Below are positions 2,214 to 34,505 of a DNA stretch of 57,719 bases, piece after piece; positions within the stretch are counted from its first letter, which is position 1, and every line of letters starts with the position of its first letter. The translations under genes and the position numbers were made by a program. Below the pieces are notes generated by a model. That model searched no databases. It was not told the DNA's origin and worked only from the letters and a program-made list of their open reading frames with translations. Origin of the DNA: Oscillospiraceae bacterium (GTDB lineage Bacteria > Bacillota > Clostridia > Oscillospirales > Ruminococcaceae); NCBI GenBank assembly GCA_017473015.1, contig JAFUNP010000006.1, forward strand, positions 1-57,719, given 5' to 3'.

Positions 2214-3539
2214 TTATTTAACTTTAACGATTTTTTCCAGACCACCCATGTATGGACGGAGAACTTCTGGAATTGTTACAGAGCCGTCAGCCTGCAGGTG
2301 GTTTTCCAGGAATGCAATCAGCATACGTGGAGGAGCAACAACTGTGTTGTTCAGTGTGTAAGCCAGCTGAGTTTTGCCTGTTTCTTCATCTTTGTATTTG
2401 ATGTTCAGACGGCGTGCCTGAGCGTCACCCAGTGTGGAGCAGGAACATACTTCAAAGTATTTCTGCTGACGTGGACTCCATGCTTCGATGTCGCATGATT
2501 TAACTTTCAGGTCTGCCAGGTCACCGGAGCAGCATTCCAGCTGACGAACAGGGATTTCCAGGCTGCGGAACAGTTCTACAGAGTAGTTCCACATTTTGTT
2601 GTACCATTCCATGTGGTCTTCTGGTTTACAGATAACAATCATTTCCTGTTTTTCAAACTGGTGTACACGGTAGATACCGCGTTCTTCGATACCGTGGGAG
2701 CCTTTTTCTTTTCTGAAACATGGGCTGTAAGATGTGAGTGTCAGAGGCAGTTTAGCGCCGTCCAGAGTCTGGTCGATGAAACGGCCAATCATTGTATGTT
2801 CGGATGTACCGATGAGGTAAAGGTCTTCACCTTCGATTTTGTACATCATAGCTTCCATTTCTGGGAAGGACATAACACCTTTAACAACATTACCGTGCAT
2901 CATGAAAGGAGGAATTACATAAGTAAAGCCTTTGCCAATCATAAAGTCACGTGCGTAAGCCAGAACAGCTTCGTGCAGACGGGCTACATCACCCAGCAGG
3001 TAGTAGAAACCGGAACCTGCTACACGGCCTGCGGATTCAAGGTCGATACCGCCCAGGCTGTCAAGAATGTCAGCGTGGTATGGGATTTCCCATTCTGGAA
3101 CAACATTGTCACCGAAGTGCTGAACATCAACGTTTTCAGAGTCATCACGGCCGATTGGTACAGATGGGTCGATGATGTTTGGCAGTGTGTACATGATTGT
3201 CTGGATTCTTTCTTCCAGTTCTGCCTGTTTTGTTTCCAGAGCTGTCAGTTCGTCTTCGTCAGCTTTAACTGCTGCCATATTGGCGTCGATTTTTGCCTGG
3301 ATTTCAGCTTTTTCTTCTTCTGTAGCAGCTTTTTTCAGAGCGCCGAAGAGTGGGCCGTTTTCTTTGGACAGTTTGTTTCTTTCTGCGCGCAGAGCATCTC
3401 TTTTACCCTGGATGTCACGACGGGCAGCGTCCAGTTCGATAACTTCGTCAACCATTGGAAGTTTTTCATCCTGGAATTTCTTTTTGATGTTTTCTTTAAC
3501 GATTTCTGGATTTTCGCGGACAAATTTAATGTCTAACAT
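2214..3539 (-). CDS. serS: serine--tRNA ligase
   Basis: 441 aa with an N-terminal coiled-coil arm followed by a class II aaRS core (motif 2/3-like FRKE...GSH, HQFEKQE). RBS aaggag sits 12 nt after the parB stop, so no leader or T-box is possible. Confidence 0.9.
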   Translation of the reverse strand: MLDIKFVRENPEIVKENIKKKFQDEKLPMVDEVIELDAARRDIQGKRDALRAERNKLSKENGPLFGALKKAATEEEKAEIQAKIDANMAAVKADEDELTALETKQAELEERIQTIMYTLPNIIDPSVPIGRDDSENVDVQHFGDNVVPEWEIPYHADILDSLGGIDLESAGRVAGSGFYYLLGDVARLHEAVLAYARDFMIGKGFTYVIPPFMMHGNVVKGVMSFPEMEAMMYKIEGEDLYLIGTSEHTMIGRFIDQTLDGAKLPLTLTSYSPCFRKEKGSHGIEERGIYRVHQFEKQEMIVICKPEDHMEWYNKMWNYSVELFRSLEIPVRQLECCSGDLADLKVKSCDIEAWSPRQQKYFEVCSCSTLGDAQARRLNIKYKDEETGKTQLAYTLNNTVVAPPRMLIAFLENHLQADGSVTIPEVLRPYMGGLEKIVKVK

Positions 3540-3551
3540 GATAAACTCCTT

Positions 3552-4409
3552 TTATTTCTTTTCAAGCAAATTAGCCAGTTCCATCAGCTGTTCCTGACTA
3601 TTGAATGTAATGTTGAGTGACCCTTTGCCGTCCTTGTAACTGATTTTTACCGGAGTTCCGTGCATTTCTGACAGGGCAATCTCCACTTCCTTTACTATGG
3701 AAGGCACATTAAGGGTTTTGGGCTGTTTCGGAACTTTCTGCAGCTGTTTTGCCAGCAGTTCACACTGGCGGACTGACAGCTGTTTTTCGGCTGTCTGCAC
3801 AGCCAGCTCCATCTGTTTTTCTTCGTCTGTAACCGACAGGATAACCTTTGCATGGCCCAGACTGATTTTATTTTCCTTTACCATCTGCAAAATATCCTGT
3901 GGCAGATTGAGTATGCGCAGGCTGTTTGCTATGGATGAGCGCGGTATAGACAGCTTTTTACTGATTTCATCCTGTGTGAGATTAAAGCTTTCCATCAGGC
4001 TTTTGTAACCGAGAGCCACTTCAACAGGGTCCAGGTCTTCTCTCTGCAGATTTTCAATCAGGGCTATTTCCTTTGCACTCTGGGTGGAAACATCTTTTAC
4101 TATTGCAGGGATTTCTGTCAGGCCTGCCATTCTGGCGGCACGGAAGCGTCTTTCCCCTGCGATAATGGTGTAGCGGCCGATGCCGTTTGGCATCAGCACA
4201 ATAGGCTGCAGCACGCCGTGTTCGAGAATGGACCGGCTGAGCTGCTCAAGACTCTGTGTTTCAAAAGTCTTGCGTGGTTGATACGGGTCAACATCTATGT
4301 CCGATAATTTTACAGTGGATGCCGAGGCATCCGAGATTTGCTGCTCGCTGGATAAAAACAACGAGTCTAATCCTCTCCCTAAACCGGTATTTTTCTTCGC
4401 CATGGGCAT
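3552..4409 (-). CDS. parB: chromosome partitioning protein ParB/Spo0J
   Basis: N-terminal GLGRGLDSLF ParB box, an HTH region and the LQREDL motif; position downstream of parA. Confidence 0.85.
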   Translation of the reverse strand: MPMAKKNTGLGRGLDSLFLSSEQQISDASASTVKLSDIDVDPYQPRKTFETQSLEQLSRSILEHGVLQPIVLMPNGIGRYTIIAGERRFRAARMAGLTEIPAIVKDVSTQSAKEIALIENLQREDLDPVEVALGYKSLMESFNLTQDEISKKLSIPRSSIANSLRILNLPQDILQMVKENKISLGHAKVILSVTDEEKQMELAVQTAEKQLSVRQCELLAKQLQKVPKQPKTLNVPSIVKEVEIALSEMHGTPVKISYKDGKGSLNITFNSQEQLMELANLLEKK

Positions 4410-4608
4410 CTTCCTTTCTTTCGGATTTTGTACATATACACTTGTATTACCTGAAAATACAGTTTCGCAAATTACTGTACTCTATTATCATACTACTTTA
4501 TGAAAAATAACTCAAGTGTTTTATTGATTTTTCCATTTGTGCTGCCAAATATAGCTGTTGCGGCTTTGGTTGCATGTCAGATAGGAAATTTTATATTCTT
4601 CCCCCGCC

Positions 4609-4624
4609 TGTTCCACATAGAACA
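4609..4624. promoter_or_regulatory. degenerate parS-like half-palindrome TGTTCCACATAGAACA
   Basis: Outer arms TGTTCC/GAACA match the parS arms but the centre is diverged. Located just upstream of parB. Confidence 0.25.
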
Positions 4625-4640
4625 TCTTTTATATACATTA

Positions 4641-5192
4641 TTATATATAATAAATGTCGGTGGACCAGTTGGCAGGGTTGTTGGCAATATATTCCGCCTT
4701 TTCCATATAATCCGCCTCATTGCGGATAATATGGTCGTAGTATGAGCGCTGCCATACATCAATTTCTGGCATCAGATAATGAATTTTCTTTGATGAATTC
4801 ATTTTCAGATATCCAACTGCCTTTGATACAACCGAGCGTTTACCGCGTAGGGGCGATTCACGAATCGCCCGCTCTTCTTTTATAGTGAAAAGCAGATGTA
4901 TATGATTTGGCATTATTACATATTCGTTAATCTCTATATTAAATTTTTCAGGCAGTTCACATATTATTTCGTCAACTATACGCCCACAGGAAGACAATCT
5001 GTTTTCGGGCGGTTCGTGAACCGCCCCTACGCGAATCCGGGAAATTTTCCGGTATTCAGTTTTATTTTTATCCGCATTCTTCCAGAATAAATTTTTCCTG
5101 TCTTTGGTACATATTGTGATAAAGTACATACCTGCTGTGCTGTAATCCCAATCTTTCAAACGGATACTTTTTCTTTGCGGCAGATTATCCAT
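4641..5192 (-). CDS. REP-associated tyrosine transposase (RAYT, IS200-like Y1 HuH transposase)
   Basis: 183 aa with YFITICT N-terminus, HuH motif IMPNHIHLL and catalytic WQRSYYDHIIRNE (compare E. coli YafM FWEHAIRN). Lies between parA (stop 5196) and parB. Carries two in-frame REP hairpins at 4843-4872 and 5007-5033. Confidence 0.8.
   Translation of the reverse strand: MDNLPQRKSIRLKDWDYSTAGMYFITICTKDRKNLFWKNADKNKTEYRKISRIRVGAVHEPPENRLSSCGRIVDEIICELPEKFNIEINEYVIMPNHIHLLFTIKEERAIRESPLRGKRSVVSKAVGYLKMNSSKKIHYLMPEIDVWQRSYYDHIIRNEADYMEKAEYIANNPANWSTDIYYI
4843..4872. repeat. REP hairpin inside the RAYT coding sequence (ccgcGTAGGGGCGATTCACGAATCGCCCgc), identical to the intergenic copy at 24126-24152
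   Basis: GTAG head plus palindrome GGGCGATTC/GAATCGCCC. Encodes AIRESPLRG in frame. Confidence 0.8.
5007..5033. repeat. REP hairpin inside the RAYT coding sequence (GGGCGGTTCGTGAACCGCCCCTACGCG), in opposite orientation to 4843-4872
   Basis: Palindrome GGGCGGTTC/GAACCGCCC plus the GTAG head on the gene strand. Encodes RVGAVHEPPE in frame. Confidence 0.8.
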
Positions 5193-5195
5193 TGG

Positions 5196-5960
5196 CTACC
5201 TTCCGTTCTGTCCCAACACTTCCTCGGCCAGTTCCATATAGCTTTTTGCACCTTTGGATGAGGCATCGTAAAAATTGATAGGTTCGCCGTAGCTTGGGGC
5301 TTCGGACAGGCGCACATTTCTTGGAATTGTGGTTTTGTACACCTTATTTGGGAAATACTTCTTAACCTCTGCCACCACCTGTAAGGTAAGGTTAAGACGG
5401 GAATCATACATTGTCAGCAAAACACCTTCAATATCAATGTATTTATTATAGTGTTGCTTAACCAGACGGATGGTATTCATCAGTTCAGAAAGACCTTCCA
5501 GAGCAAAGAATTCGCACTGGATAGGCACCAGCACTGTGTCAGCCGCTGACAGCGCATTGATTGTCAGCAGGTCAAGGGCCGGCGGACAGTCTATAAATAT
5601 AAAATCATAGTTGTCGCTGACTCTGTTCAGCGCTGTGCGCAAACGGGCGTGACGGTTATCAAGAGCCACCAGCTCAACTGCAGCCCCTGCCAGCTTTGTA
5701 GATGACGGCAATACATCAACACCGAATTTTGTCTTTACCAAAGCGTCCCTTACATCATCACCGTCCAAAATAACTGTATAGGTAGAGTGTTCCAGACCTC
5801 TTTTCATTATACCGTAGCCGGATGTAGTGTTTCCCTGGGGGTCCAGGTCTACCAGCAATACCTTTTTACCTTTTGCGGCTATACACGCGGCCAGATTTAC
5901 CGCTGTAGTTGTTTTGCCCACGCCGCCTTTCTGGTTTGCCACCGCTATAATTTTTGCCAT
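5196..5960 (-). CDS. parA: chromosome partitioning ATPase ParA/Soj
   Basis: Deviant Walker A KGGVGKTT; 254 aa, typical of Soj. Confidence 0.9.
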   Translation of the reverse strand: MAKIIAVANQKGGVGKTTTAVNLAACIAAKGKKVLLVDLDPQGNTTSGYGIMKRGLEHSTYTVILDGDDVRDALVKTKFGVDVLPSSTKLAGAAVELVALDNRHARLRTALNRVSDNYDFIFIDCPPALDLLTINALSAADTVLVPIQCEFFALEGLSELMNTIRLVKQHYNKYIDIEGVLLTMYDSRLNLTLQVVAEVKKYFPNKVYKTTIPRNVRLSEAPSYGEPINFYDASSKGAKSYMELAEEVLGQNGR

Positions 5961-6048
5961 AGTTACCCCACCTTTTGCTGTAATAAATAATTTATCGTCA
6001 ATATTTTTATTTTATCATATAACATATAGTTTTTAAAGAGTAATTTTT

Positions 6049-6064
6049 TGTTCCATGTGGAACA
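6049..6064. promoter_or_regulatory. parS-like site TGTTCCATGTGGAACA
   Basis: 16-bp near-palindrome with 3 mismatches to the Firmicutes parS consensus TGTTTCACGTGAAACA. Sits in the parA/noc-like divergent intergenic region. Confidence 0.5.
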
Positions 6065-6123
6065 TATATACCATTTCAAAAACCTCAATAATAAAATTAA
6101 ACGTAGTTTTTAATATACTTTTC

Positions 6124-6153
6124 GGGACGTCGAGGACGCCGTCCCCTACGCGG
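6124..6153. repeat. REP hairpin GGGACGTCGAGGACGCCGTCCCCTACGCG (same unit as 25881-25908 and RAYT2 10858-10886)
   Basis: GTAGGGG head with a GC-rich palindrome. The surrounding 6120-6420 region is a stack of further hairpins (6161-6192, 6273-6310, 6313-6350). Confidence 0.75.
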
Positions 6154-6568
6154 GGTGGGTATCGGGAGGAGTGCAACGCACCTCCCGATTTTTTATAAGC
6201 GCGTGACGTTGAGTTGCCGATTTGAAAATGCGCAGCATTTTTTGGAGGCAATAGTGACGCGCACACCTTCTACGCGTTAGGGGACCGGGGCGAATCGCAA
6301 CGCCCCGGGGCTTTGGTACTTTCACCCTGAAAGTACGTAAAACTTCTTTTGAAGTTTTATCTATATAATCGAGGCTGTTAGCGATAAACGGTAACCCTAA
6401 CTTTCCATCACATAATCCACCAATTTCCACCACCCTTCCCCTTTCTTCCCTATATTTTTACAAAATAAACCGAAAATAATGTAATTTTCTCTGTTTTTCT
6501 GCGATATATAAAGGTATATTTTTTATTTTATATATGTTATTGTAAAATCAAAGAAAGGAGTTTTGCCA

Positions 6569-7369
6569 ATGTTCGCCACAGCATTCAGACCACGCCGGGA
6601 AGTAAACACAGTCATGCAGATACCCTTGTCACAGATTGTCCCCTGTCCTTATCAGCCGCGAAAGCTTATAAACCGTCAGGCATTGGAAGACCTGGCAGAA
6701 AATATAAAGGAAAACGGCATACTTCAGCCGCTGACTGCCACCCGACTGTCTGACGGCCGCTACCAGCTGATTGCTGGTCACCGCAGGCTTTTGGCCGCCA
6801 CCAAGGCCGGACTGGAAACCGTGCCTGTCATCCTTCTGGATAAAACCGAAGAAGAAGTGGCGGTGTTGGCGGTAATAGAAAACCTGCAGCGTGAGGATTT
6901 AAACTTTTTTGAACAGGCTATGGCTATACAGTCACTGATGACCAACCTTAATCTTACCCAGGCCGCCGTAGGCCAGAAGCTTTCCCTTTCCCAGCCGGCA
7001 GTAGCCAACAAACTGAAACTGCTGCAGTTTTCCAAAGAACAGCAGATGAAGATACTGGCTTTCAATCTGTCTGAACGCCACGCACGCGCTATTTCCCGTC
7101 TGCCTGCCGAAAAGCAGGACAAAGCCCTGGACTACATAATCCGCAACAATCTGAATGTTTCCGCCACCGACAGATATGTGAACAGCCTGCTGGCCCCAAA
7201 AGAAAAGCACAAGCAGACTGTAAAAGTAAATATAAAGGATATACGCATATTTTCAAACACAATCGCAAAGGCAGTAAAGATAATGCAGACTGCCGGAATA
7301 AACGCAGGCTGTCAGCAGACCGAAGACGACACCGCTATCCGCTGGCAGATAACAGTACCCAAAATATAG
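6569..7369 (+). CDS. noc: ParB-family paralog, Noc-like (nucleoid occlusion protein-like)
   Basis: ParB box region VPCPYQPRK, LIAGHRR, LQREDL and a C-terminal ERHARA...LNVSATDRYV resembling the B. subtilis Noc C-terminus. ATG at 6569 is preferred over the TTG at 6563 (RBS aaggag 6555-6560). Confidence 0.7.
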   Translation: MFATAFRPRREVNTVMQIPLSQIVPCPYQPRKLINRQALEDLAENIKENGILQPLTATRLSDGRYQLIAGHRRLLAATKAGLETVPVILLDKTEEEVAVLAVIENLQREDLNFFEQAMAIQSLMTNLNLTQAAVGQKLSLSQPAVANKLKLLQFSKEQQMKILAFNLSERHARAISRLPAEKQDKALDYIIRNNLNVSATDRYVNSLLAPKEKHKQTVKVNIKDIRIFSNTIAKAVKIMQTAGINAGCQQTEDDTAIRWQITVPKI

Positions 7370-7370
7370 T

Positions 7371-7396
7371 TAATAAACACCCCGGTGTTTTTAATA
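7371..7396 (+). terminator. intrinsic terminator after the noc-like gene
   Basis: Hairpin aaacaccccggtgttt followed by a T-run. A second hairpin, aaggcacctt/aaggtgcctt, lies at 7429-7460. Confidence 0.5.
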
Positions 7397-7473
7397 TACA
7401 GTTTTTCACCATTCCTATTAACCGCACAAAAGGCACCTTTTACAAGGTGCCTTTTGTGTTTCCGTATCAACCT

Positions 7474-7489
7474 TGTTCCACGTGGAACA
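7474..7489. promoter_or_regulatory. parS site TGTTCCACGTGGAACA (perfect 16-bp palindrome)
   Basis: One mismatch (symmetrised) from the consensus TGTTNCACGTGAAACA. Located downstream of the noc-like gene, near rsmG. Confidence 0.6.
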
Positions 7490-7599
7490 AATAAAATCTA
7501 TAAGTCAGATACTCACATCCGCTCTATTCATAAATAGACAAATATAATTAAACTCCCCATATTTATCAATACAGGGAGTTCTCTATTACATTTCTATTA

Positions 7600-8298
7600 T
7601 CACAGCGGTGCTTTATTTATCTTTCCGCCGTTGCGTGGGTATGGTTTTGGTGTTTCTTTTATTTTCTTTGAAACAATCAGACAGCGTTTGCTTTCATCAG
7701 GCAATGTGAAAGTTTCCATATTTTCATATTTGCCGCCCAGCTTTTCAATGGCTTTCAGCGCAGGTGTCAGCTCCTTTTCGCCGTCGCCTTTCATGGCGAT
7801 GAAATGGCCGCCCACCTTTGCCAGCGGGATGCAGTATTCAGACAACACTCTCATATCTGCCACAGCACGGGCAGTTACCACATCAAACTGTTCTCTCCAC
7901 TGTTTTCTGGCTGCTTCCTCCGCTCTTTCCTTTACTACATGGCCATCAAGACCAAGAGTATCCAGAGCATACTGCAGAAATGTGCAGCGTTTGCCTGTTG
8001 GCTCAATAAGAGTCAGGTCAATTTCCGGTTTGTAAATTTTGGTTACAATACCCGGAAAGCCTGCGCCTGTGCCAACATCAGCCACTTTGCCTTTTACCAG
8101 AGAATGCTTTGCAAACAGCAGGCTGTCCAGAAAATGCTTGTTTTCAATGCCCAGTGGGTCAGTAATAGCTGTCAGATTAACCTTTTCGTTGTAATCCACC
8201 AGTATTTCGGCATACTTGTCCAGCTGGTCCAGCTGTTTTTCTGTCAGTTCTATATCATATTCTTTCAGAGTCTGTACAAAACGAATTCTGTCAATCAT
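7600..8298 (-). CDS. rsmG: 16S rRNA (guanine527-N7)-methyltransferase RsmG (GidB)
   Basis: 232 aa with SAM motif DVGTGAGFPG; adjacent to mnmG. Confidence 0.9.
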   Translation of the reverse strand: MIDRIRFVQTLKEYDIELTEKQLDQLDKYAEILVDYNEKVNLTAITDPLGIENKHFLDSLLFAKHSLVKGKVADVGTGAGFPGIVTKIYKPEIDLTLIEPTGKRCTFLQYALDTLGLDGHVVKERAEEAARKQWREQFDVVTARAVADMRVLSEYCIPLAKVGGHFIAMKGDGEKELTPALKAIEKLGGKYENMETFTLPDESKRCLIVSKKIKETPKPYPRNGGKINKAPL

Positions 8299-8315
8299 AT
8301 TTACTCCTAAATTAA

Positions 8316-10187
8316 TTATTTTTTCATTTCTCGCATTTTAAGCTCCAGCAGCAGTGAAGAAATATCACTTGGGCTTACGCCGGAAATTCTGGATGCCTGA
8401 CCCACATTTGCGGGGCGTATTTTAATCAGCTTTTCTCTGGCTTCCATGCGCAGACCATTCATTGTGCTGTAGTCAATATCTTCCGGAATCAGTGTATTTT
8501 CCAGCTTTTTGGTATGTTCAATCTGTGCCTGCTGGCGTTTTACATAGCCGTCATACTTGATGTCCACTTCCACCTTGCTGCCGATAAACGGTGTCACTTC
8601 TTCTCCTTCACCTATTACTTTTACCAGTTCTTCATAGGTAATCTGTGGGCGTTTCAGGAATTCGTTGGCTCTTACACCTGTGGACAGTGGCGGCAGTCCT
8701 TTGCTTTCCAGCAGCTCTTTCACCTGACCAGGCTTGATTGTGATTGAAGAAATTCTTTCGATTTCTCTGTTTTTCACTTCCAGCACATGGTTGTAATAAT
8801 CCCATCTTTCGTCGTCTACCAGACCTATTTCCCTGCCCATCGGTGTCAGTCTTTCGTCAGCATTGTCCTGGCGGAGATACAGTCTGTACTCACTGCGGCT
8901 GGTCATCATTCTGTATGGGTCCAGAACGCCTTTTGTAATCAGGTCGTCAATCAGTGTGCCGATATAAGAGGACTGGCGTGTGAGAGTGAACTCATCTTTT
9001 CCCTGCAGCTTTCTTGCAGCGTTGATACCTGCTATCAGACCCTGTGCAGCAGCTTCTTCATAACCGGATGTACCGTTGAACTGGCCTGCACCGTAAAGAT
9101 GAGGATATTTTTTGAATTCCAGAGTAGCTTTCAGTTCCAGAGGGTCCACACAGTCATATTCAATGGCGTATGCAGGTCTCATAACCTCCAGATTTTCCAG
9201 ACCTTTGATTGTCTTGTAAAATGCCACCTGTACTTCCTCCGGAAGTGATGAGGACAATCCCTGCAGATACATTTCATCAGTATCAGCACCGCAAGGCTCA
9301 ACGAAGAACTGGTGTCTTGGCTTGTCAGAAAATCTCATTACTTTGTCTTCCAGAGACGGACAGTATCTTGGACCGATACCTTCGATTTTGCCGCCGTACA
9401 GTGGAGAGCGGTGAATATTGTCCATAATTACCTTGTGTGTATCCAGGTTTGTGTACTGAATATGGCAAGGCAGGATGTTTTTGATTTCGTGTCTTGTCAT
9501 AAATGACATAGGCACTGTTTTTTCATCACCTTCCTGCACATCCATTACAGAAAAGTCGATACTACGTTTGTTTACACGGGCCGGTGTGCCTGTTTTAAAG
9601 CGGCGCAGTTCAATGCCTGCAGCTTTCAGGCTGTCAGACAGCTTCATTGCGCTGTGGTGGCCGTCCGGACCGGAATAGTAGGCCGCATCACCCACATAAA
9701 TTTTACCTGTCAGATATGTACCTGTGGCGATAATTACCGCCTTGCAGTCGTACTGTGTGCCCAGCTGGGTTACAACAGCAACAGGCTCGTTGTTTTCATT
9801 GAACTTGATTTCGCAGATTTCTGCCTGTTTCAGGTCCAGGTTTGGCTCTTTTTCCACCAGATTTTTCATATATGAATGATATTTCATACGGTCTGTCTGC
9901 TGGCGCAGAGAGTGAACAGCAGGACCTTTGCCCAGGTTCAGCATTCTCATCTGCAGTGCACAGGCGTCGGCAGCTATGGCCATCACGCCGCCCAGAGCGT
10001 CAATTTCCCTTACCAGATGGCCTTTGGCTGTACCGCCGATGGCAGGGTTACAGGGCAGGTTTCCCACCCCGTCCAGAGTCAGTGTGAACAGACCGGTTCT
10101 GCAGCCCAGTCTTGCGCTGGCCACAGCCGCTTCTATTCCGGCATGACCCGCACCGATAACAATTACATCATAATTTCCTAATACCAT
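8316..10187 (-). CDS. mnmG: tRNA uridine 5-carboxymethylaminomethyl modification enzyme MnmG (GidA)
   Basis: 623 aa with FAD motif [11 protein letters not shown] and a conserved GidA core. Confidence 0.95.
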
Positions 10188-10491
10188 AAATAGCTCCTTT
10201 TAGGTTTAAATGTCTGTTAACTTTGCAATCCCTTTCACCGATTGTAAGCAACTAAAATATATATTCCACCGGTTTCCCGGATGGTTGACTGAATTAAAAT
10301 CTGTTTTTGATATAAATACAGATTTGCTCTTATATTTTCAACATTATTTTTAACAAATGTTGAATTTCTTATATTTTTCACAGTTTTTAAAGAAAAACTG
10401 CAATAAAACCCGGATTTTAAAGATTTTTCGAAAGATCAACAATATTACATTTTGTAATATTTATTTTAATTATATTACTATAAGTATTTTT

Positions 10492-11010
10492 TTATAATAT
10501 TTTACTGTAATACTCATCATCACGCCATTTTGCAGGGTTAGTCAGAATATACTCCACCTTTTCCATATAATCCGTCTCATTGCGGATAATGTGGTCGTAA
10601 TATGAGCGTTGCCATAAATCAATTCCACATTTCTTATTTGTAAACCTCTTGAAGGTTGAAATATATTGTGAAATCAAAGAATTTTCACGCGTAGGGGACG
10701 GCCTCCCGGACGTCCCGCCAGCATTTTTTATTTCAATTATCATGTGTATATGATTGGGCATGATTACATAATGTCCTACATTTATGTTTTCATAAATATC
10801 ATTCATTATTTTTACTTGTTCATCAATAACACGCCCATATTCCGTCAGTTCAATAAACGGGGCGTCGAGGACGCCGCCCCCTACGCGTATTTTGCTTAAA
10901 ATATGCTTTTTACCAACAGTGCATATAGTTATAAAATACATCCCGTCTGAATTATAATCCCAATCTTTCAGGCGCATTTTCTTTCTCTTAGCCAAAGTTT
11001 TCTTTTCCAT
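10492..11010 (-). CDS. REP-associated tyrosine transposase (RAYT) paralog
   Basis: 172 aa with MYFITICT, HuH VIMPNHIHMI and WQRSYYDHIIRNE. Inserted between mnmE and mnmG. Carries in-frame REP hairpins at 10688-10719 and 10858-10886. Confidence 0.8.
   Translation of the reverse strand: MEKKTLAKRKKMRLKDWDYNSDGMYFITICTVGKKHILSKIRVGGGVLDAPFIELTEYGRVIDEQVKIMNDIYENINVGHYVIMPNHIHMIIEIKNAGGTSGRPSPTRENSLISQYISTFKRFTNKKCGIDLWQRSYYDHIIRNETDYMEKVEYILTNPAKWRDDEYYSKIL
10688..10719. repeat. REP hairpin inside RAYT2 (cgcGTAGGGGACGGCCTCCCGGACGTCCCgcc), identical to the intergenic copy at 14874-14903
   Basis: Encodes AGGTSGRPSPTRE in frame; GTAG head plus palindrome. Confidence 0.8.
10858..10886. repeat. REP hairpin inside RAYT2 (GGGGCGTCGAGGACGCCGCCCCCTACGCG), related to 6124-6153 and 25881-25908
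   Basis: Encodes RVGGGVLDAP in frame. Orientation is opposite to the 10688 copy. Confidence 0.8.
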
Positions 11011-11025
11011 AAACCATAACTGACA

Positions 11026-12393
11026 TTATTTACCAACACAGAACTTGGAAAACACCTCATTAACTACTTCGTCGGAAACATTTTCGCCGGTCAAACCATA
11101 CACTGCATATAATGCTTCGTCCACGGCCACGCCGATAATATCCAGGCTGAAACCTTCTTTGAATCGGTCGTTGGCATCTTTTACGGAATTATACGCTGTT
11201 CTTACAGCTTCATATTGTCTTTCGTTTACGATTGCACCGGTGGTTACATCAATATCTGCCACACCCAGCACTTCCATCACATCGTTTTCAAACTCCTTGG
11301 ACATATAAAAATCCTTGGCTGTGATATACAGCACCTTTTTGAAATTGGCTTCCACCTTTGAAACATCAAATTTCTGTTCCAGGTCCTGTTTGTTGATAAT
11401 GGCGACGCTGTTCAGGTCGCGACATCTTTCCGCCAGTTCTATGTCATCAGCTGTGATTTCATTGCTGCCGTCAAACACACAGAACACCAGGTTTGCACCC
11501 TGCAGTCTGTCCAGACTGCGCTGAATGCCCATGGCTTCCACCACATCATCTGTGGCACGGATGCCGGCTGTATCCTGAAGAATCAGGTTCACACCACCCA
11601 GAATAACTTCCTGTTCCACCACATCACGGGTTGTGCCGGCAATAGGTGTAACAATTGCCTTTTCAAAACCGGACAGAGCATTCAGCAATGTGGATTTGCC
11701 CACATTTGGCTTGCCCACAATAGCCGTATTTACACCCTGACGGATTTTCGCGCCGTTGTCGTAACCGTCCATCAGCTTTTTCAGGCTGTTTTCGGCGTTT
11801 GTCAGGATTTCACTTACCTCTTCGTCAGTTACATCCTCCACTGCTTCTTCAGGGTAATCGGTGTAAGCGGAGATATGTCCCACCAGCACCAGCAGGTCGT
11901 CGCGGATTTTTGCCGCTCTTTTGTACAGGTGACCTTCCAGAGCGCTTTTTGCAGCGTTCAGCGCCTGATTTGATGTGGCGTTTATCATTTCCATTACAGC
12001 TTCGGCCTGTGTCAGGCTCATTTTGCCGTTGAGAAATGCCCTTTTGGTGAATTCACCTGCACCTGCAGGCTTTGCACCTGCTTCGTAACAGGCTTTCAGC
12101 AGCTGGTCAGCCACAGCAGAGCCACCGTGACAGCTGATTTCCACCACATTTTCACCGGTGTAGCTGCGTGGTGCGCGGAAAAACAGGGCAACCGCCTGGT
12201 CAACTTCCTCACCTTTTCTATAGAAAGAGCCAAACATGGCTGTGTAGCCCTTGGCATCTTTTACACTTTTATTTTTACTGAAAGGAACAAATACTTTTTC
12301 TGCAATTTCAAAAGCTTCATCGCCTGAAATTCTTATACTGCACAAGCTTGCTTTGCCCGGTGCGGTAGCCATTGCGGCTATACATTCACTCAT
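11026..12393 (-). CDS. mnmE: tRNA modification GTPase MnmE (TrmE/ThdF)
   Basis: 455 aa with G-domain GKPNVGKSTLLN and DTAG motifs, and the C-terminal CVGK typical of MnmE. Confidence 0.95.
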   Translation of the reverse strand: MSECIAAMATAPGKASLCSIRISGDEAFEIAEKVFVPFSKNKSVKDAKGYTAMFGSFYRKGEEVDQAVALFFRAPRSYTGENVVEISCHGGSAVADQLLKACYEAGAKPAGAGEFTKRAFLNGKMSLTQAEAVMEMINATSNQALNAAKSALEGHLYKRAAKIRDDLLVLVGHISAYTDYPEEAVEDVTDEEVSEILTNAENSLKKLMDGYDNGAKIRQGVNTAIVGKPNVGKSTLLNALSGFEKAIVTPIAGTTRDVVEQEVILGGVNLILQDTAGIRATDDVVEAMGIQRSLDRLQGANLVFCVFDGSNEITADDIELAERCRDLNSVAIINKQDLEQKFDVSKVEANFKKVLYITAKDFYMSKEFENDVMEVLGVADIDVTTGAIVNERQYEAVRTAYNSVKDANDRFKEGFSLDIIGVAVDEALYAVYGLTGENVSDEVVNEVFSKFCVGK

Positions 12394-14827: not shown

Positions 14828-14903
14828 CCGCGTAGGGGACGGGTTTCCCGTCCCGTGGCAGTATCTTAAAACACGCGTAGGGGACGGCCTCCCGGACGTC
14901 CCG
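14828..14903. repeat. REP doublet (two GTAGGGGACG-headed hairpins) plus a REP-like terminator hairpin at 14925-14950
   Basis: ccgcGTAGGGGACGGGtttCCCGTCCC and cgcGTAGGGGACGGCCTCCCGGACGTCCC in tandem, downstream of gyrA. Confidence 0.8.
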
Positions 14904-17488: not shown

Positions 17489-18109
17489 CTATTTCAGCAG
17501 TTCGCTTTCCACCCAAGGCTCCAGCTTGTATTTTTCCACAATGCCGTCGCATATTTCTGCCAGCATGGCATCTTCATCAGGGTACATATCTCTTCTCGGT
17601 ACTACCATATATGCAAAGCCACGCAGATTTTTTTCCTTACTGCGTTTCATCACAAAAATGTACAGATGTTTTATAACCTTGATATTTTTTATCAGACTGT
17701 AGTCAAAATATCTTCTCTGTTCATTTGTGAGGAACTCGCATCTGTCCTCGTAAAAGTAAATCATGCCTTTTTCAGGAGTGAAAAACTCATGGGTGTCCTT
17801 ATTGCGCAGAACATGCTGCACAGCCAGATTAAACTCCCTTTTCACACCCCAGAAATAGTTGTAAACAAACAGGAAAAGGAAAATCAGCCATGCGCCCACC
17901 ACAAAAATCATGGTTTCAATCACTATTATCTTTTTTGCTGCCAGTGTCATTACCAGTACAGCAGCCAGTGCCAGCACCACAGATTCTATGATAAAGGTTT
18001 TCACTATGCTTTTTTTCCACAGCTGTGCTTCCAGCTCCTGCTCCAGAATTTCCACCTGGATATAGTCGTCCTGGGAAATATTCACATCAATCTTCAACGG
18101 ATATTCCAT
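17489..18109 (-). CDS. YcxB-like membrane protein (hypothetical) inserted between gyrB and gyrA
   Basis: 206 aa with two central TM helices. The domain organisation resembles YcxB-like, and also the 29893..30402 ORF. Confidence 0.5.
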   Translation of the reverse strand: MEYPLKIDVNISQDDYIQVEILEQELEAQLWKKSIVKTFIIESVVLALAAVLVMTLAAKKIIVIETMIFVVGAWLIFLFLFVYNYFWGVKREFNLAVQHVLRNKDTHEFFTPEKGMIYFYEDRCEFLTNEQRRYFDYSLIKNIKVIKHLYIFVMKRSKEKNLRGFAYMVVPRRDMYPDEDAMLAEICDGIVEKYKLEPWVESELLK

Positions 18110-23974: not shown

Positions 23975-24200
23975 TTCTGTCATCCTGAGGAAGACTTTGT
24001 CTGACGAACCCACTACGCTCGCAGGACAGGCTCGCGTTTTTGCCTACGGCAAAACCATTCAGTCGCTACGCTTATCTCCTCTTGCTCTTTCTGCACAAAC
24101 CTGAAAATATGCTGTGTCGGCTTCCGGGCGATTCGTGAATCGCCCCTACGCGTAGAACCTGCGTATACAAGGCTCCCATTCAGGCGACTGAGGGGTTATA
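23975..24200. repeat. Composite repeat block between oriC and the dnaA stop (TGTCATCCTGAG unit, a module shared with 2020-2095 and 26760-26820, REP 24126-24152, gactgaggg module)
   Basis: cactacgctcgcaggacaggctcg...caaaaccattcagtcgctacgc matches 2020-2095 and is the reverse complement of 26768-26820. The REP is identical to the RAYT1 internal copy. Confidence 0.75.
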
Positions 24201-24205
24201 TTCAG

Positions 24206-25510
24206 TTACAGTGTTTTTACATTTTTTATAATATCTTCCACTGTGTCGCGGAAGAAGGAGTTTGTCTTTATTTTCTTGTCCACCTGTTTCAGTGTGTATA
24301 CAACTGTGGAATGGTCGCGTCCGCCGAACTCTTTGCCTATTTCTTCCATGGTCAGACCGCACACTTCCTTCACCACATGCATGGCCATCTGTCTGGCTTC
24401 GCTGATTTCCCGCTTTCTCTTCTGGCTTCTCACATCAGCAGCTGTCACATTGTATACCTTGCATACATCGGTGATTATTTTTTCGATTGTCACCGGTGTG
24501 CTCATCTGTTCGTTGAGAATATCCTTGATTGCGGCCTGGGCATTTGCCATAATCGGCGGTTTGCCCTCCAGCTTCTGCATTGCATCCAGCTTTTTAACCA
24601 CGCCTTCCAGCTGACGGATGTTGGTTTTCACCTTTGAAGCAATAAATTCAATAACTTCAAATTTGATGTCCATACCCAGCAGGTCAGATTTTCTTTTGAT
24701 GATGGCGCATCTTGTTTCAAAATCCGGTGGCCGTATGTCGGCTATCAGACCCCATTCAAACCTGTTTCTCAGCCTGTCTTCCAGACTTTTGATTTCTTTC
24801 GGCGGTCTGTCAGATACCAGTACTATCTGCTTGCCGGCATTGTGCAGTGCGTTGAAAGTGTGGAAAAATTCTTCCTGTGTACTTTCCCTGCCTGCTATAA
24901 ACTGAATATCGTCCACCAGCAGCACATCTGCCTGACGGTATTTGTTTTTAAATTCACTGGTTTTGTTGTCTTTGATTGCTGCGATGATTTCGTTGGTGAA
25001 ATCCTCACCGGACACATACACAATGTTTGCCCCCGGATTATTTTTCAGAATTTCCGCCCTGATAGCATTCAGCAGATGGGTTTTGCCCAGACCGCTGTCC
25101 CCATGTATAAACAACGGGTTGTAGGAATTGGACGGGTTCTGTGCTACAGCCAGCGCTGCCGCATGGGCAAATTTATTGGAAGAACCTACTATGAAAGTAT
25201 CAAAAGTAAAAGCGTATTCGCCGCTGTTTACAGGTTTTACTTCTTCGGCTGCTTCTTCTTCGGTTGGTTTTATGGCTATGTTCAGCAGAACTGTGAAACC
25301 CAGCACATCCTCAAAAGCCTCTGTCAATAACCCTTTGAATCTGTTGTTTACAGTGTCCTGCAGCCATTCGTTGGCCACATACAGTGTCACAGTGTCACCG
25401 TCCATGCTGCCGGCCTCCATCGGGTCCAAAAACAGCTTGTAAGACGCCTGCACCATGCGCTGTGCACAGTAGTCTTTTACAGCTAAAAATACATCATTGA
25501 AAGATTCCAT
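24206..25510 (-). CDS. dnaA: chromosomal replication initiator DnaA
   Basis: 434 aa with AAA+ Walker A GDSGLGKTHLL and a domain IV DNA-binding signature (ARQMAM...FGGRDHSTV). Confidence 0.95.
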   Translation of the reverse strand: MESFNDVFLAVKDYCAQRMVQASYKLFLDPMEAGSMDGDTVTLYVANEWLQDTVNNRFKGLLTEAFEDVLGFTVLLNIAIKPTEEEAAEEVKPVNSGEYAFTFDTFIVGSSNKFAHAAALAVAQNPSNSYNPLFIHGDSGLGKTHLLNAIRAEILKNNPGANIVYVSGEDFTNEIIAAIKDNKTSEFKNKYRQADVLLVDDIQFIAGRESTQEEFFHTFNALHNAGKQIVLVSDRPPKEIKSLEDRLRNRFEWGLIADIRPPDFETRCAIIKRKSDLLGMDIKFEVIEFIASKVKTNIRQLEGVVKKLDAMQKLEGKPPIMANAQAAIKDILNEQMSTPVTIEKIITDVCKVYNVTAADVRSQKRKREISEARQMAMHVVKEVCGLTMEEIGKEFGGRDHSTVVYTLKQVDKKIKTNSFFRDTVEDIIKNVKTL

Positions 25511-25693: not shown

Positions 25694-26240
25694 GTAGGGT
25701 GCGATGCCCACATCGCACCGTTGCCGGTCTGCCGTGGAAGTGAGCGTAGCGAAACGACCATGTGCAGATGCCGAGTTTCGTTATCGAGGCAAGGCAATGC
25801 GATGCCCACATCCCACCACTTATAAAAAGATTTCCTTTGTTTTGTTGTAATTGCGGCCGGTTGATGTCGCTCATAGTATACCGTAGGGGACGGCGTCCTC
25901 GACGTCCCAAGGGCGGATACTGTCCGCCCCTACGCGAGGCAGCGCACAAATCAGAGTATTGTCATCCTGAGCAAGCGTAGCGCGTCGACGCCTGCCGCAG
26001 CAGGTGTGCAGAGCCGCAACCGAACGAAAGTGAGGCTCTTGGCGGCGAGCAAGGATCTTTGCCGCTACAAGCGGCAACGGGATGTCCAGAGGCCATCCCC
26101 TACGCGAAATGCAAAAGCCTCCCATGTGCAATGGCCCAGGCCAGCTTCTCTTGCCCTTTGGGCAATTCACCGTCGGGGTGGTGGCCGAGTGTAACGCGGC
26201 CGGAGGGGTTGTTTATTCAAATCTCCGCGGGACGGGGAGC
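25694..26240. repeat. Large REP/BIME-like cluster upstream of dnaA (bracketed GCGATGCCCACATCGCACC hairpins, two GTAGGGG REPs at 25881-25936, TGTCATCCTGAG unit 25955-26075, REP 26078-26106)
   Basis: At least six GC-rich hairpins with GTAG(G) heads. The hairpin GGGACGGCGTCCTCGACGTCCC equals 6124-6153. Confidence 0.8.
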
Positions 26241-27526: not shown

Positions 27527-28552
27527 ATGGAATTAATTGCAACCCCACTTGGCTGGCTGATGCGCCGGATTTATAATTTTGTGGGCAACTATGGTGTGAC
27601 ACTTATCCTTTTCACACTGGTTACAAAAATCATCCTTATGCCTCTGACTGTAAAGCAGAAAAAATCCATGATACGCATGAATGCTTTCCAGCCAGAAATT
27701 CAGAGAATTCAGAAAAAATACGCTACAGACACACAGAAACAGCAGGAAGAGCTGACACGCCTGCAGACAGAACACAATTTCTCCATGACAAGCGGCTGTC
27801 TGCCTATGCTTATCCAGATGCCTATCCTGTTCGGTCTGATTGACGTTATCTACAAACCTCTGCGCCATATCGTAGGTGTAAACAAAAATCTGATTGCTGA
27901 CACACTTACACCAATGGCGGAAAAAATGCTGGGCACTCTTTCCAGATACAGCCCACAGACAGATATTATCAAAGCAATCAAACAGGCTCCAGAAGCTTTC
28001 GCAGATGTACTGGATGCAGCTACAATCACTACAGTTCAGGAAATGGACCTGACTTTCCTGGGCATGGACCTTTCCGCTACACCAAGCCTGAAAGTGTTCA
28101 ACTCCCTGCTGCTTATCCCTGTGCTGTCTGTTATATTCATGCTGCTGCAGCAGTATCTCACACAGAAACTCAACGGTCAGCAGTCCAACGGCCAGACAAC
28201 AGCTATGCTGGGCATGACTACACTGATGTTCGGCTATTTTGCATTTATGATGCCTGCAGGTGTTTCTATCTACTGGATTTTCTCCAGCGTATTCGGCATC
28301 CTTCAGGAACTGGTACTGCGCATCTTTATTGACCCTGAAAAAGAAAAAGCAAAAATCGAAGAAGAAATTTACGAAGCACGCAAAGCAAGAAAAGAAAAAG
28401 AAAAACAGCGCCCTGCAAAAGTAGCCAAGGCTAAAGAAAAAGCCAAGGACAAATATGTGGCAGATGTTTACGAATCAGAAGAAGAAGCTGAAAGAGTAAG
28501 AAAACGTCTGGAAAAAGCAAGAGCACTGGATAAAGAAAAATACGGTGATTAA
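27527..28552 (+). CDS. yidC: membrane protein insertase YidC/SpoIIIJ (Oxa1 family)
   Basis: 341 aa with five-TM core and a C-terminal basic tail; position after rnpA/yidD. Confidence 0.9.
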   Translation: MELIATPLGWLMRRIYNFVGNYGVTLILFTLVTKIILMPLTVKQKKSMIRMNAFQPEIQRIQKKYATDTQKQQEELTRLQTEHNFSMTSGCLPMLIQMPILFGLIDVIYKPLRHIVGVNKNLIADTLTPMAEKMLGTLSRYSPQTDIIKAIKQAPEAFADVLDAATITTVQEMDLTFLGMDLSATPSLKVFNSLLLIPVLSVIFMLLQQYLTQKLNGQQSNGQTTAMLGMTTLMFGYFAFMMPAGVSIYWIFSSVFGILQELVLRIFIDPEKEKAKIEEEIYEARKARKEKEKQRPAKVAKAKEKAKDKYVADVYESEEEAERVRKRLEKARALDKEKYGD

Positions 28553-29892: not shown

Positions 29893-30402
29893 ATGACCTC
29901 ATATATATCAAAAACTGAAATAACTCTGGAAAAATATATGGAAATAAGCAACAGGCCTCTGGGCAAAAAGGCCCGTGCTGACCTGAACCGCTGGAAAATC
30001 ACAAAAATTGCCGGAATCGCAGTTTCTGCTGCTATCGCAGGATTGGCCCTTAATTCCGGCATGGGCGAATTTTCACTTATCAGCGGAGTGTTTGGTCTGG
30101 TGATGGCTTATCAGTTGTTTTTCCAGCGAAAAAACCTTATAAAGAAGAAATATGCCGAAACAGTTGACCTGCTGCCGGATAAAAAATGGGTGCGCACCAT
30201 CACATTTGATGATAAAATCACTGTGGCCGACGGCAACAATTCCTCTGTTTTCGCCTACTCCGATTACAAATGGGCATCCGAAAACGAGGGTTATTTCCTG
30301 CTGTACCGCAATGAAAACATAGTTCTCCGTGTGGAAAAAGGCAGCTTCACCTACGGTAATGAAAAAGACTTCCTCCGCTGGATTAGCAATAAATTAAAAT
30401 AG
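29893..30402 (+). CDS. YcxB-like membrane protein (hypothetical)
   Basis: 169 aa with two central TM helices and a PH-like C-terminal region. Paralog-like relative of the gene between gyrB and gyrA. Confidence 0.5.
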   Translation: MTSYISKTEITLEKYMEISNRPLGKKARADLNRWKITKIAGIAVSAAIAGLALNSGMGEFSLISGVFGLVMAYQLFFQRKNLIKKKYAETVDLLPDKKWVRTITFDDKITVADGNNSSVFAYSDYKWASENEGYFLLYRNENIVLRVEKGSFTYGNEKDFLRWISNKLK

Positions 30403-30452
30403 TATTGATGCATAAGGGCGGCAATCTGCCGCCCGATTAATAAAATTTTTAC

Positions 30453-30528
30453 GCTTGTGTGGCTCAGCTGGCAGAGCAGCTCACTCGTAATGAGCAGGTC
30501 GTGAGTTCGAATCTCATCACAAGCTCCA
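30453..30528 (+). tRNA. tRNA-Thr (anticodon CGU)
   Basis: Manual cloverleaf: acceptor gcttgtg/cacaagc, D-arm gctc...gagc, anticodon stem gctca/tgagc with loop cuCGUaa, T-arm gtgag-ttcgaat-ctcat, encoded CCA. Followed by a terminator hairpin acccggtt..accgggt and a T-run. Confidence 0.85.
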
Positions 30529-30539
30529 CCCTACCCGGT

Positions 30540-31110
30540 TTTACACCGGGTATTTTTTTATTCCATAACTTTTCAACTTTTTAAACATTTTTAAACTTTT
30601 AGATGTTGAAATGAGAAAATAATACATAACTATATAATACATAATTTCACACTTTGGCACAAAATTGACCACCGGTTTTACTATTTGTAAAGTTTTAAAC
30701 AAAGTTTTCAACACCATGTTGAAAACTAAAATTAAATAAAAATGCTTATTTTTGGGCAAAAACACTGATTTTGGTAAAAAATGGCAGTTGAAAATTTTTT
30801 CGCCGTTTTACTATCTGTAATTTTCCACAGTTTTTAACATTTTCAACAGAGTTTTCAACATTTTCTCAGTTTTCAACGAAAAAATTAAGTTTTTATCATT
30901 AAATTGTTGAAAACTCTGTTGAATTCGTGGAAAACTATACCCAAAAACTACATTTTCAACTGGAAATCCGGTCCGTAATCCAATATTTTGGCAAAAATAT
31001 GTGGAAAACATTCTATATATAGTGTAAAATAAAAATCAGATTAAAAGTTAAGGGGATGTTAAAAACTGTGGAAAAATTGCTATTTTCTCAACAAATTTAC
31101 CATTTTGGCG
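30540..31110. promoter_or_regulatory. Second DnaA-box-like cluster (about 16 copies of TGTTGAAAA/TGTGGAAAA in both orientations) downstream of jag/tRNA-Thr
   Basis: Examples: ttttcaacagagttttcaacattttctcagttttcaacg, ttgttgaaaactctgttgaattcgtggaaaact, tatgtggaaaac, ctgtggaaaaa. Positionally analogous to the B. subtilis jag-thdF DnaA-box cluster. Extends into the first 50 nt of the queG ORF. Confidence 0.6.
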
Positions 31111-34374: not shown

Positions 34375-34505
34375 CCGTAGGGGACGATGCCCACATCGTC
34401 CCGTTGGCGCTTTGCCGCGGAAGGCGATTTATTCGCCGACCGTGCGCAAATGCGAGCTGTGGCGAAATGCGAGCAAGCCAATACGATGCCCACATCGTCC
34501 CACAG
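34375..34505. repeat. BIME-like element: two direct REP hairpins GGGACGATGCCCACATCGTCCC (34375-34402, 34483-34501) bracketing an 80-bp core
   Basis: The core is the reverse complement of 1945-2030 and the left hairpin equals 1855-1880. Confidence 0.8.

Follow-up and report, generated by a model that had tools for sequence, protein, structure and literature searches.

The closest described relatives of the genes reported here belong to subclass 2.4 of the TnpA_Y1 transposases (Quentin et al. 2018, PMC6006769), which equals group 4 of the REP-associated tyrosine transposases (RAYTs) of Bertels et al. 2017 and is characterized by the motifs NH[IFV]H, WQ and YIxNNP and by repetitive extragenic palindromes (REPs) in frame within the tnpA_REP gene. 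Two genes that fit this subclass, RAYT1 and RAYT2, were found in a 57.7-kb stretch of DNA from one uncultured Oscillospiraceae genome; this stretch, referred to as the window, was the part of the genome analysed. RAYT1 lies between parA and parB and RAYT2 between mnmE and mnmG. On balance it is probable that both are promoter-less RAYTs of subclass 2.4 which are read through from housekeeping transcripts, are held by purifying selection, turn over and act on REPs.

With subclass 2.4 the two genes share the motifs, a length of about 170 to 195 aa, multiple copies of low identity per genome, and GTAG REPs, including intragenic REPs in frame. They differ from it in that the adjacent spacers contain no flanking REPs, and in that each gene has a fixed pair of internal REPs in inverted orientation, which enclose the HUH strand and evolve together. 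The genome belongs to the Clostridia, while PMC6006769 emphasises Cyanobacteria and Bacteroidetes and does not describe placement directly behind housekeeping genes. The E. coli REPtron (TnpA_REP, YafM or RayT, with REP/BIME sequences; structure 4ER8) resembles the locus in its HUH/Y1 fold of the monomeric type, the WQ...R residues, the GTAG foot of the hairpin and the dispersed intergenic REPs. Sequence identity to the E. coli protein is nevertheless only about 17%, and in E. coli the gene is present only once, with REP pairs on its flanks and outside housekeeping operons; the 58 kb studied here showed about 10 REPs, compared with hundreds in E. coli. The REPIN-RAYT systems of Pseudomonas (group 3) and the REP/RAYT sets of Stenotrophomonas also comprise several paralogs, each co-evolving with its own REP type, and inverted REP pairs. 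In those systems the RAYTs are described as vertically inherited at stable single loci flanked by REPINs, whereas in the present case turnover of the loci was seen between close species, with the REP pair placed inside the open reading frame (ORF). The IS200/IS605 elements (IS608, ISDra2) have the same HUH/Y1 core, recognition of hairpins and single-stranded DNA chemistry on the lagging-strand template, which would give co-orientation with replication, but the genes of the window have no element ends, no tnpB, a different tyrosine motif and no near-identical copies. The anatomy of internal REPs has been published; in a literature search, riding on operons and turnover of slots in Oscillospiraceae were not found described.

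The genes were mapped from an ORF listing together with Pfam and NCBIfam scans, and the two junctions consist of the following features.
3552-4409, minus strand: parB/spo0J (Pfam ParB_N, HTH_ParB and ParB_C)
4410-4640, minus strand: spacer between RAYT1 and parB
4641-5192, minus strand: RAYT1, 183 aa, TnpA_REP of subclass 2.4-like type, GC content 0.39
5196-5960, minus strand: parA/soj, partition ATPase (Pfam AAA_31/CbiA)
8316-10187, minus strand: mnmG (gidA), TIGR00136 at 830 bits
10188-10491, minus strand: AT-rich, hairpin-rich spacer before mnmG
10492-11010, minus strand: RAYT2, 172 aa, paralog of RAYT1, GC content 0.37
11026-12393, minus strand: mnmE (trmE/thdF), TIGR00450 at 355 bits

The initial annotation had placed a RAYT gene on the same strand in each junction, and this was exact from the sequence: the RAYT1 ATG follows the parA stop after 3 bp, and the RAYT2 ATG follows the mnmE stop after 15 bp. 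A GGAAGG Shine-Dalgarno sequence is present seven bases upstream of RAYT1, within the 3' end of parA. No terminator was detected by a scan between parA or mnmE and the RAYTs, and the only matches within the RAYTs were the REP hairpins themselves; nothing was thus seen in these short gaps that would isolate the RAYTs from the upstream gene. The downstream gaps are large, 231 bp from RAYT1 to parB and 304 bp from RAYT2 to mnmG.

The identification of both genes as RAYTs also proved correct, since both contain the HUH, WQ and Y-x3-NP motifs and 4ER8 was the best match. The two proteins are 46% identical. RAYT1 matched Pfam Y1_Tnp with 39 bits (cut-off 23). For both ORFs the best-scoring family was NCBIfam NF047646 (REP_Tyr_transpos), whose curated cut-off of 80 bits was narrowly missed by RAYT1 (79.2 bits) and RAYT2 (68.3 bits); this model appears to be tuned to proteobacterial RAYTs. 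The HUH motif reads MPNHIHLL in RAYT1 (N96-H99) and MPNHIHMI in RAYT2 and is invariant in an alignment of 22 sequences. Both proteins contain the block WQRSYYDHIIR, in which W147, Q148 and R157 (RAYT1 numbering) are invariant and correspond to W94, Q95 and R104 of the E. coli protein, which are tied to GTAG recognition. The tyrosine motif Y-x3-NP (Y168-IANNP in RAYT1, Y-ILTNP in RAYT2) aligns to DYIYINP of 4ER8, with Y168 opposite E. coli Y115. The E. coli TnpA_REP, PDB entry 4ER8, was also the closest solved structure by sequence, its HUH and Tyr segments being aligned, and it was the top Foldseek PDB match (E 9e-8, TM scores 0.56/0.62) of an AlphaFold model with a confidence (pLDDT) of 79.4, ahead of the TnpA proteins of IS608 and ISDra2. 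When compared with the subclass 2.4 motifs, RAYT1 agreed in NHIH, WQ and YIANNP, while RAYT2 agreed in NHIH and WQ and deviated once, with YILTNP. By sequence and model, RAYT1 and RAYT2 therefore fit TnpA_REP subclass 2.4 (Bertels group 4) as paralogous genes for putative HUH/Y1 single-stranded DNA endonucleases. No further RAYT copies or remnants were found in the window by tblastn and a relaxed family hidden Markov model search, and an exact-sequence look-up of RAYT2 found no record.

With parA as a probe, the homologous region was obtained from 80 GTDB species representatives, and the genes were mapped. Besides the window, a RAYT was present at either junction only in loci L002-L004, that is in 3 of the 80 related species, while all more distant genomes of the set had no RAYT at either junction. 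The arrangement is accordingly not universal in the clade; universality was what the initial annotation had named as making it unremarkable. The state of the junctions in the nearest relatives was as follows.
L001 (nearest relative, parA 95% identical): mnmE-mnmG junction without RAYT, the absence being exact to the coding sequence (CDS) and the downstream spacer homologous; contig reaching only as far as the parA stop, so that the parA-parB junction is not covered
L002 (parA about 90% identical): frameshifted RAYT pseudogene at the parA-parB junction; mnmE-mnmG junction not covered
L003 (parA about 90% identical): RAYT at the mnmE-mnmG junction; parA-parB junction "empty", with the last 38 nt of a RAYT remaining
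L004 (parA about 90% identical): RAYT at the mnmE-mnmG junction and at the parA-parB junction
L005 and L006 (parA about 85% identical): no RAYT at either junction; 154-aa GNAT-like ORF directly after mnmE

The 38-nt remnant at the parA-parB junction of L003 (..KWAEDKYY..) had a local score of 39 against a shuffled maximum of 27, and the retained RAYT end therefore points to a deletion. A search for RAYT remnants in the empty sites of L001 and L005 gave nothing above the shuffled scores. The proposal of two independent additions was supported, because RAYT1 and RAYT2 are 46%-identical paralogs with different REP hairpins and the junctions are otherwise free of RAYTs; the two genes are thus independent same-strand additions which are probably co-transcribed. 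Among the relatives the parA-parB gaps had a median of about 50 bp (5-1162 bp) and the mnmE-mnmG gaps one of about 190 bp (13-1462 bp). Unrelated small same-strand ORFs were found in these junctions in L005 (4023-4487), L006, L009-L011 (parA-parB), L024, L030, L032, L037 and L079, and the occupants other than RAYTs in Oscillospiraceae included a GNAT-like acetyltransferase, a small membrane protein, a metallophosphoesterase and others. Both junctions are thus generally permissive hot spots for accessory genes.

The occupied junctions differ in what they carry. At mnmE-mnmG the window and L004 contain RAYTs of the same type with 66% amino acid identity and a synonymous divergence (dS) of 0.99, against 1.1-1.5 for the flanks, which is compatible with orthology of these two genes. 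Between L003 and L004 the RAYT dS at the same junction was 1.81, while that of mnmE was 0.60, and the hairpins differ; this indicates a non-orthologous replacement. At parA-parB the window, L002 and L004 carry three different RAYT types. The "AIHESP" type of RAYT1 was found in three slots, as it also occurs between the 206-aa ORF and gyrA in L081 and downstream of gyrA in L003. RAYT1 and the L081 RAYT before gyrA had a dS of 0.82, similar to the flank dS of 0.66-0.68, despite their different slots. The extreme C-termini of the RAYTs are slot-specific (..YYI*, ..YYS.*, ..TEG*), while the interiors follow the type, and this mosaic pattern would be best explained by recombination between paralogs. 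The dN/dS ratios of the RAYTs were 0.14-0.38, against about 0.05 for parA and mnmE, that is 4 to 8 times above their neighbours, and indicate that the RAYTs are under purifying selection. Their GC content of 0.37-0.39 compares with 0.45-0.50 for the neighbours. From these comparisons the placement of the RAYTs is recent, changeable and lineage-specific, and not a fixed new part of the par and mnm operons.

The initial annotation had also set the RAYTs inside parA-RAYT-parB and mnmE-RAYT-mnmG operons, and this part needed correction, as parB and mnmG do not simply follow in one tight operon: the gaps of 231 and 304 bp contain upstream regions that are conserved regardless of the RAYT. The spacer between RAYT1 and parB, whose counterpart was also found in relatives, whether they carry a RAYT or not, contains a promoter-like TTGAGT-17-TATGAT (4515..4487) and a hairpin with a U-run (4480-4453), and the same promoter-like element and leader hairpin precede parB in every close relative. 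In the window the hairpin and U-run, GTACAGTAATTTGCGAAACTGTATTTTC, begin within 10 nt after TTGAGT-17-TATGAT, and an equivalent hairpin occupies the same position in L002-L004; this leader hairpin may be an attenuator or operator. Before mnmG, the last 65 nt or so of the spacer, including TTGCTTACAATCGGTGAAAGGGATTGCAAAGTTAAC (about 10216-10251, minus strand), are nearly identical in the RAYT-free L001. This core element of about 36 nt lies just upstream of the mnmG ribosome-binding site, is also kept in L003, L004 and L005, and is almost invariant although the coding regions of these species differ by 10-20%. A function as a leader or regulatory element of mnmG is possible. An Rfam scan of window positions 1-30000 matched no family, including at TTGCTTACAATCGGTGAAAGGGATTGCAAAGTTAAC, and the spacers are therefore without a known riboswitch or leader. 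Thus parB and mnmG keep their own conserved upstream regions, whether a RAYT is present or not. Downstream of the mnmE-mnmG RAYT of L004, a 68-nt insertion relative to L003 (L004 3440-3510) contains two GC-rich palindromes, CCACCACCTTTGGTGGTCC and CCCTCCCTTTCACAAGGGAGG, that are unrelated to the GTAG REPs.

Each RAYT ORF contains two GC-rich hairpins after GTAG, the first in sense orientation at about 125-165 nt and the second inverted at about 315-345 nt from the start of the gene. In both RAYTs these hairpins flank the HUH strand and are translated in frame, those of RAYT1 encoding RVGAVHEPP and RAIRESPLR.
5007-5030, minus strand: hairpin 1 of RAYT1, in-frame REP in sense orientation, GTAGGGGCGGTTCACGAACCGCCC, encoding VGAVHEPP
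4847-4870, plus strand: hairpin 2 of RAYT1, inverted in-frame REP, GTAGGGGCGATTCACGAATCGCCC on the plus strand, encoding RAIRESPL
10859-10884, minus strand: hairpin 1 of RAYT2, in-frame REP in sense orientation, GTAGGGGGCGGCGTCCTCGACGCCCC
10691-10716, plus strand: hairpin 2 of RAYT2, inverted in-frame REP, GTAGGGGACGGCCTCCCGGACGTCCC

Such intragenic REPs are known and not new, because in-frame insertions have already been published for subclass 2.4, for which Quentin et al. 2018 give them as the unique feature (PMC6006769). The REP-encoded segment just past the HUH strand of RAYT1 is the part of the AlphaFold model with the lowest pLDDT, which agrees with the published view that REP insertions are in peripheral loops. 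The internal REP pair was present in 39 of 74 metagenomic ORFs of the family. The two REPs of one gene were identical to a fraction of 0.89, compared with 0.54 between genes; what was observed was attained in none of 2000 permutations. The stems are kept by compensatory changes, with double changes in 6 of 8 pairs; since this set had been chosen for pairing beforehand, the evidence lies in the covariation only. The family members P0017, P0064 and P0097 have extra in-frame insertions with additional VGAVHE.P / RALREAPLQ motifs, which are further REP copies beside the resident ones within the ORF.

In the whole window, 18 GT[AG]G hairpins were counted against 1.6 expected from shuffles, and 14 of them were GTAG hairpins of the RAYT REP type, 4 intragenic and 10 extragenic. 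The extragenic ones belong to at least five sequence types, and nine of the ten lie in the dnaA-side 26 kb, four of these just upstream of dnaA.
1856-1881: extragenic REP matching the type of the L004 parA-parB RAYT
6124-6149, minus strand: extragenic REP in the divergent spacer between parA and noc, of the RAYT2 hairpin-1 type with one compensated base pair
14832-14902, plus strand: two tandem extragenic REPs 3' of gyrA
24126-24149, minus strand: extragenic REP 3' of dnaA, identical to RAYT1 hairpin 2
25694-26103: four REP hairpins upstream of dnaA, at 25694 and 25883 (plus) and at 25911 and 26079 (minus)
34377-34402: extragenic REP matching the type of the L004 parA-parB RAYT

Of the tandem REPs 3' of gyrA, that at 14832-14854 matches the internal REPs of the L003 mnmE-mnmG RAYT, and that at 14877-14902 is identical to RAYT2 hairpin 2. 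The REPs at 14832-14854, 1856-1881 and 34377-34402 match only RAYT types of the sister species L003 and L004 and are therefore orphans in the window. No REP was found in the 3-bp and 15-bp gaps upstream of the RAYTs or in the 231-bp and 304-bp spacers downstream, and the flanking arrangement of a REPtron was thus absent. Some relatives do have REPs flanking the RAYT (L083, L169, L086 and L159). In L159 (5900-6600) a classical REPtron lies between gyrB and gyrA, consisting of a 153-aa RAYT without internal REPs flanked by copies of GTAGGGGCCGGGCATGCCCGGCCC.

The positions of RAYT1-like genes elsewhere were examined in gene-caller contexts for ten proteins from long contigs. In eight of the ten, the gene started within 6 bp of the end of the upstream same-strand gene or overlapped it. 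These upstream genes were the 206-aa ORF before gyrA, an M20 peptidase gene, miaB (with mutS 3 bp downstream), a 70-aa ORF, tsaC/Sua5-CoaE, lepA and, in two contexts, one of them just before dnaN, a small gene for an XRE-type helix-turn-helix (HTH) protein. The other two genes stand alone, each with a REP just upstream. The XRE-type HTH gene (69-78 aa) was seen beside RAYT1-like genes on three unrelated contigs (L086 3795-4004, L173 3773-3994 and L176 4536-4772), either directly upstream, overlapping or at 6 bp, or convergent, and the two may form a recurrent two-gene module.

A second sample consisted of 80 metagenome loci picked solely by RAYT similarity. Here RAYTs were found between gyrB and gyrA (L095; L159, L160 and L164, counted once) and, in two further loci, immediately ahead of gyrB (L146) or mnmE (L103). 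This is several-fold above a rough estimate of about 1% for random genes, given loci that are short and partly related and a comparison without a proper control sample. RAYTs adjoin gyrB, gyrA, dnaN or mnmE in the independent contigs L081, L095, L146, L159, L103 and L173. Tight coupling to the upstream gene, scored with crude ORF calls in the same metagenome loci, was found for 33% of the RAYTs and 28% of the other ORFs (p=0.45). The RAYTs thus behave as ordinary operon genes, unlike autonomous insertion sequences, and the non-random part is their recurrence at these junctions, or beside gyrB, gyrA, dnaN and mnmE, in relatives. The preference for sites near the origin suggested by the initial annotation is probably too narrow: several neighbours are indeed replication genes, but RAYTs sit equally tightly behind lepA, tsaC, miaB (before mutS) and the M20 peptidase gene. 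A targeting preference of the element, its other suggestion, is possible. A recent targeted transfer was considered for L159, L160 and L164, in which the RAYT is 99% identical and gyrB only 64%, and was rejected because the jump in identity lies inside gyrB at a conserved motif; L160 is about 100% identical to L159 only from mid-gyrB onward and is probably a chimeric or recombinant contig.

These results may be put together as follows. Each unit would be essentially the ORF alone, without flanking REPs or a recognisable promoter, and would fill the first part of the spacer behind a constitutive housekeeping gene, here parA or mnmE. Transcription would most likely occur by read-through from parA and mnmE, and translation of RAYT1 would be coupled to that of parA or closely follow it. 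RAYT expression has indeed been suggested to depend on upstream read-through transcripts (Di Nocera et al. 2013, PMC3733652). The insertions would be tolerated because parB and mnmG keep their own conserved leaders. By analogy with E. coli TnpA_REP, the enzymes would presumably work in trans, their targets being the REP hairpins dispersed near the replication genes. The slots behind housekeeping genes would gain RAYTs, lose them by deletion or pseudogenisation and then be occupied by other RAYT types, the re-filling probably by recombination between paralogs via the conserved N- and C-terminal blocks. Persistence behind essential genes would reflect the need for host transcription together with protection from deletion. 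The same-strand, leading-strand orientation would follow from this need for host transcription and may also result from the replication-fork-coupled single-stranded DNA chemistry of Y1 enzymes, from which co-orientation with replication is expected too (PMC6006769).

Several points weigh against this explanation. RAYT2 has no convincing Shine-Dalgarno sequence, and promoter-like hexamers inside parA (5437..5403) and mnmE (11163..11135) make internal promoters possible. Tight same-strand spacing is gene-like and not diagnostic, as the coupling statistics show. No conserved target or junction motif was seen at the RAYT borders. Gene conversion between slots rests on mosaic identity patterns in only 10 sequences, and the RAYT and REP counts are limited to 57.7 kb.

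The initial annotation had called the RAYTs domesticated. True domestication would mean that they are functional members of partition, tRNA-modification or replication clusters, kept for a role linked to replication or segregation, for example in organising or regulating the origin region by processing REP hairpins near oriC, dnaA and gyrA. The intact catalytic motifs and purifying selection, the concentration of extragenic REPs on the dnaA side with four just upstream of dnaA, and the recurrence of the family beside gyrB, gyrA, dnaN and mnmE in the six contigs named above are all in line with such a role, and REPs of E. coli are binding sites of gyrase, IHF and Pol I (cited in PMC6006769). 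Occupancy is nevertheless too variable for the term to be kept: RAYTs at these junctions are confined to the window and three of the 80 species, about 75 of which lack them, the closest relative L001 lacks the mnmE-mnmG copy, and fixed slots show the L002 frameshift, the L003 deletion remnant and the replacement of type between L003 and L004. The subfamily is equally settled behind lepA, tsaC, miaB and a peptidase gene, its GC content is low, and its dN/dS exceeds that of its neighbours 4 to 8 times. We therefore regard domestication as improbable. The RAYTs could instead be neutral passengers, one cargo among many in permissive spacers that gather small accessory genes, with neither targeting nor selected expression. 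The wide range of gap lengths at both junctions, the unrelated same-strand ORFs in the same places and coupling statistics like those of ordinary ORFs all speak for this. Chance filling does not readily account for the finding that within one genus at least four junctions in about 20 kb (206-aa ORF-gyrA, downstream of gyrA, mnmE-mnmG and parA-parB) repeatedly hold specifically RAYTs, and of different types, nor for intact ORFs with dN/dS well under 1, and the eight tight couplings among the ten gene-called contexts suggest dependence on host transcription. Neutral carriage is therefore rather unlikely, if less so than domestication.

The same recurrence can be read more strongly, as a slot-and-cassette system in which a few fixed sites near oriC, namely those four junctions on the immediate 3' side of genes for replication, segregation and tRNA modification, are filled, emptied and exchanged among promoter-less RAYT ORFs, the bias reflecting fork-coupled targeting of single-stranded DNA and not chance. 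The internal REP pair would then allow enzyme and substrate to move as one unit of about 0.5 kb, and exchange would proceed via the internal REPs or the conserved gene ends. This stronger version, with its parts, is speculative and doubtful. Very improbable, finally, is that ordinary autonomous insertion sequences of the IS200/IS605 type landed by chance in two operons. RAYT1 does match Pfam Y1_Tnp, and the fold resembles the TnpA structures of IS608 and ISDra2, but the tyrosine motif is Y-x3-NP and not Y-x3-Q, tnpB and subterminal hairpins outside the ORF are both lacking, and occupied and empty sites differ in the CDS only; moreover, the copies are 46% identical instead of near-identical, and the best matches are to TnpA_REP. 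Promoter-less RAYTs that ride on housekeeping transcripts and turn over between species remain the explanation that we consider probable.

The remaining genes around the two junctions are the following.
2214-3539, minus strand: serS
6563-7369, plus strand: noc-like gene
7600-8298, minus strand: rsmG

As the noc-like gene is on the plus strand, there are two separate minus-strand blocks, one on the parA-parB side and one on the mnmE-mnmG side. Further along on the same strand follow gyrA, the 206-aa ORF, gyrB, recF, dnaN and dnaA (24206-25510), with yidC at 27527 on the plus strand, and RAYT1 and RAYT2 are 12-20 kb from dnaA. A position of the RAYT region near the origin is supported by this gene order of dnaA, dnaN, recF, gyrB and gyrA together with yidC. 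A search for DnaA boxes gave none in the spacers upstream of dnaA and between dnaA and dnaN; as no cluster adjoins dnaA, distances from the origin are given relative to dnaA only. The only cluster found consists of four DnaA-box-like sites, TTTTCCACA, in an AT-rich stretch (30330-31075) about 5 kb from dnaA. On one strand (window 1-27000), dnaA-dnaN-recF-gyrB-gyrA is followed downstream by the mnmE-mnmG-rsmG and parA-parB-serS blocks, which in B. subtilis are on the other side of the origin. L001-L006 share with the window an inversion of noc relative to parA that more distant relatives lack. The 206-aa ORF (17489-18109), which has no Pfam match, is kept between gyrB and gyrA; compared with its counterpart in L081 (3374-3994) it showed 66% identity and a dN/dS of 0.21.

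To our knowledge, subclass 2.4 (group 4) is the least studied group of REP transposases. For annotation, a "transposase" within parA-parB or mnmE-mnmG need not signal a disrupted operon. Each gene holds its own two REPs, which makes these genes easily testable pairs of enzyme and substrate. In the window and its sister genomes, junctions between highly conserved genes occur in empty, filled, pseudogenised, deleted and type-swapped form and thus make up a compact natural series. This series would argue that the RAYTs of this group are promoter-less riders on housekeeping transcripts with a quick turnover, unlike the proteobacterial RAYTs, for which stable vertical inheritance has been reported.

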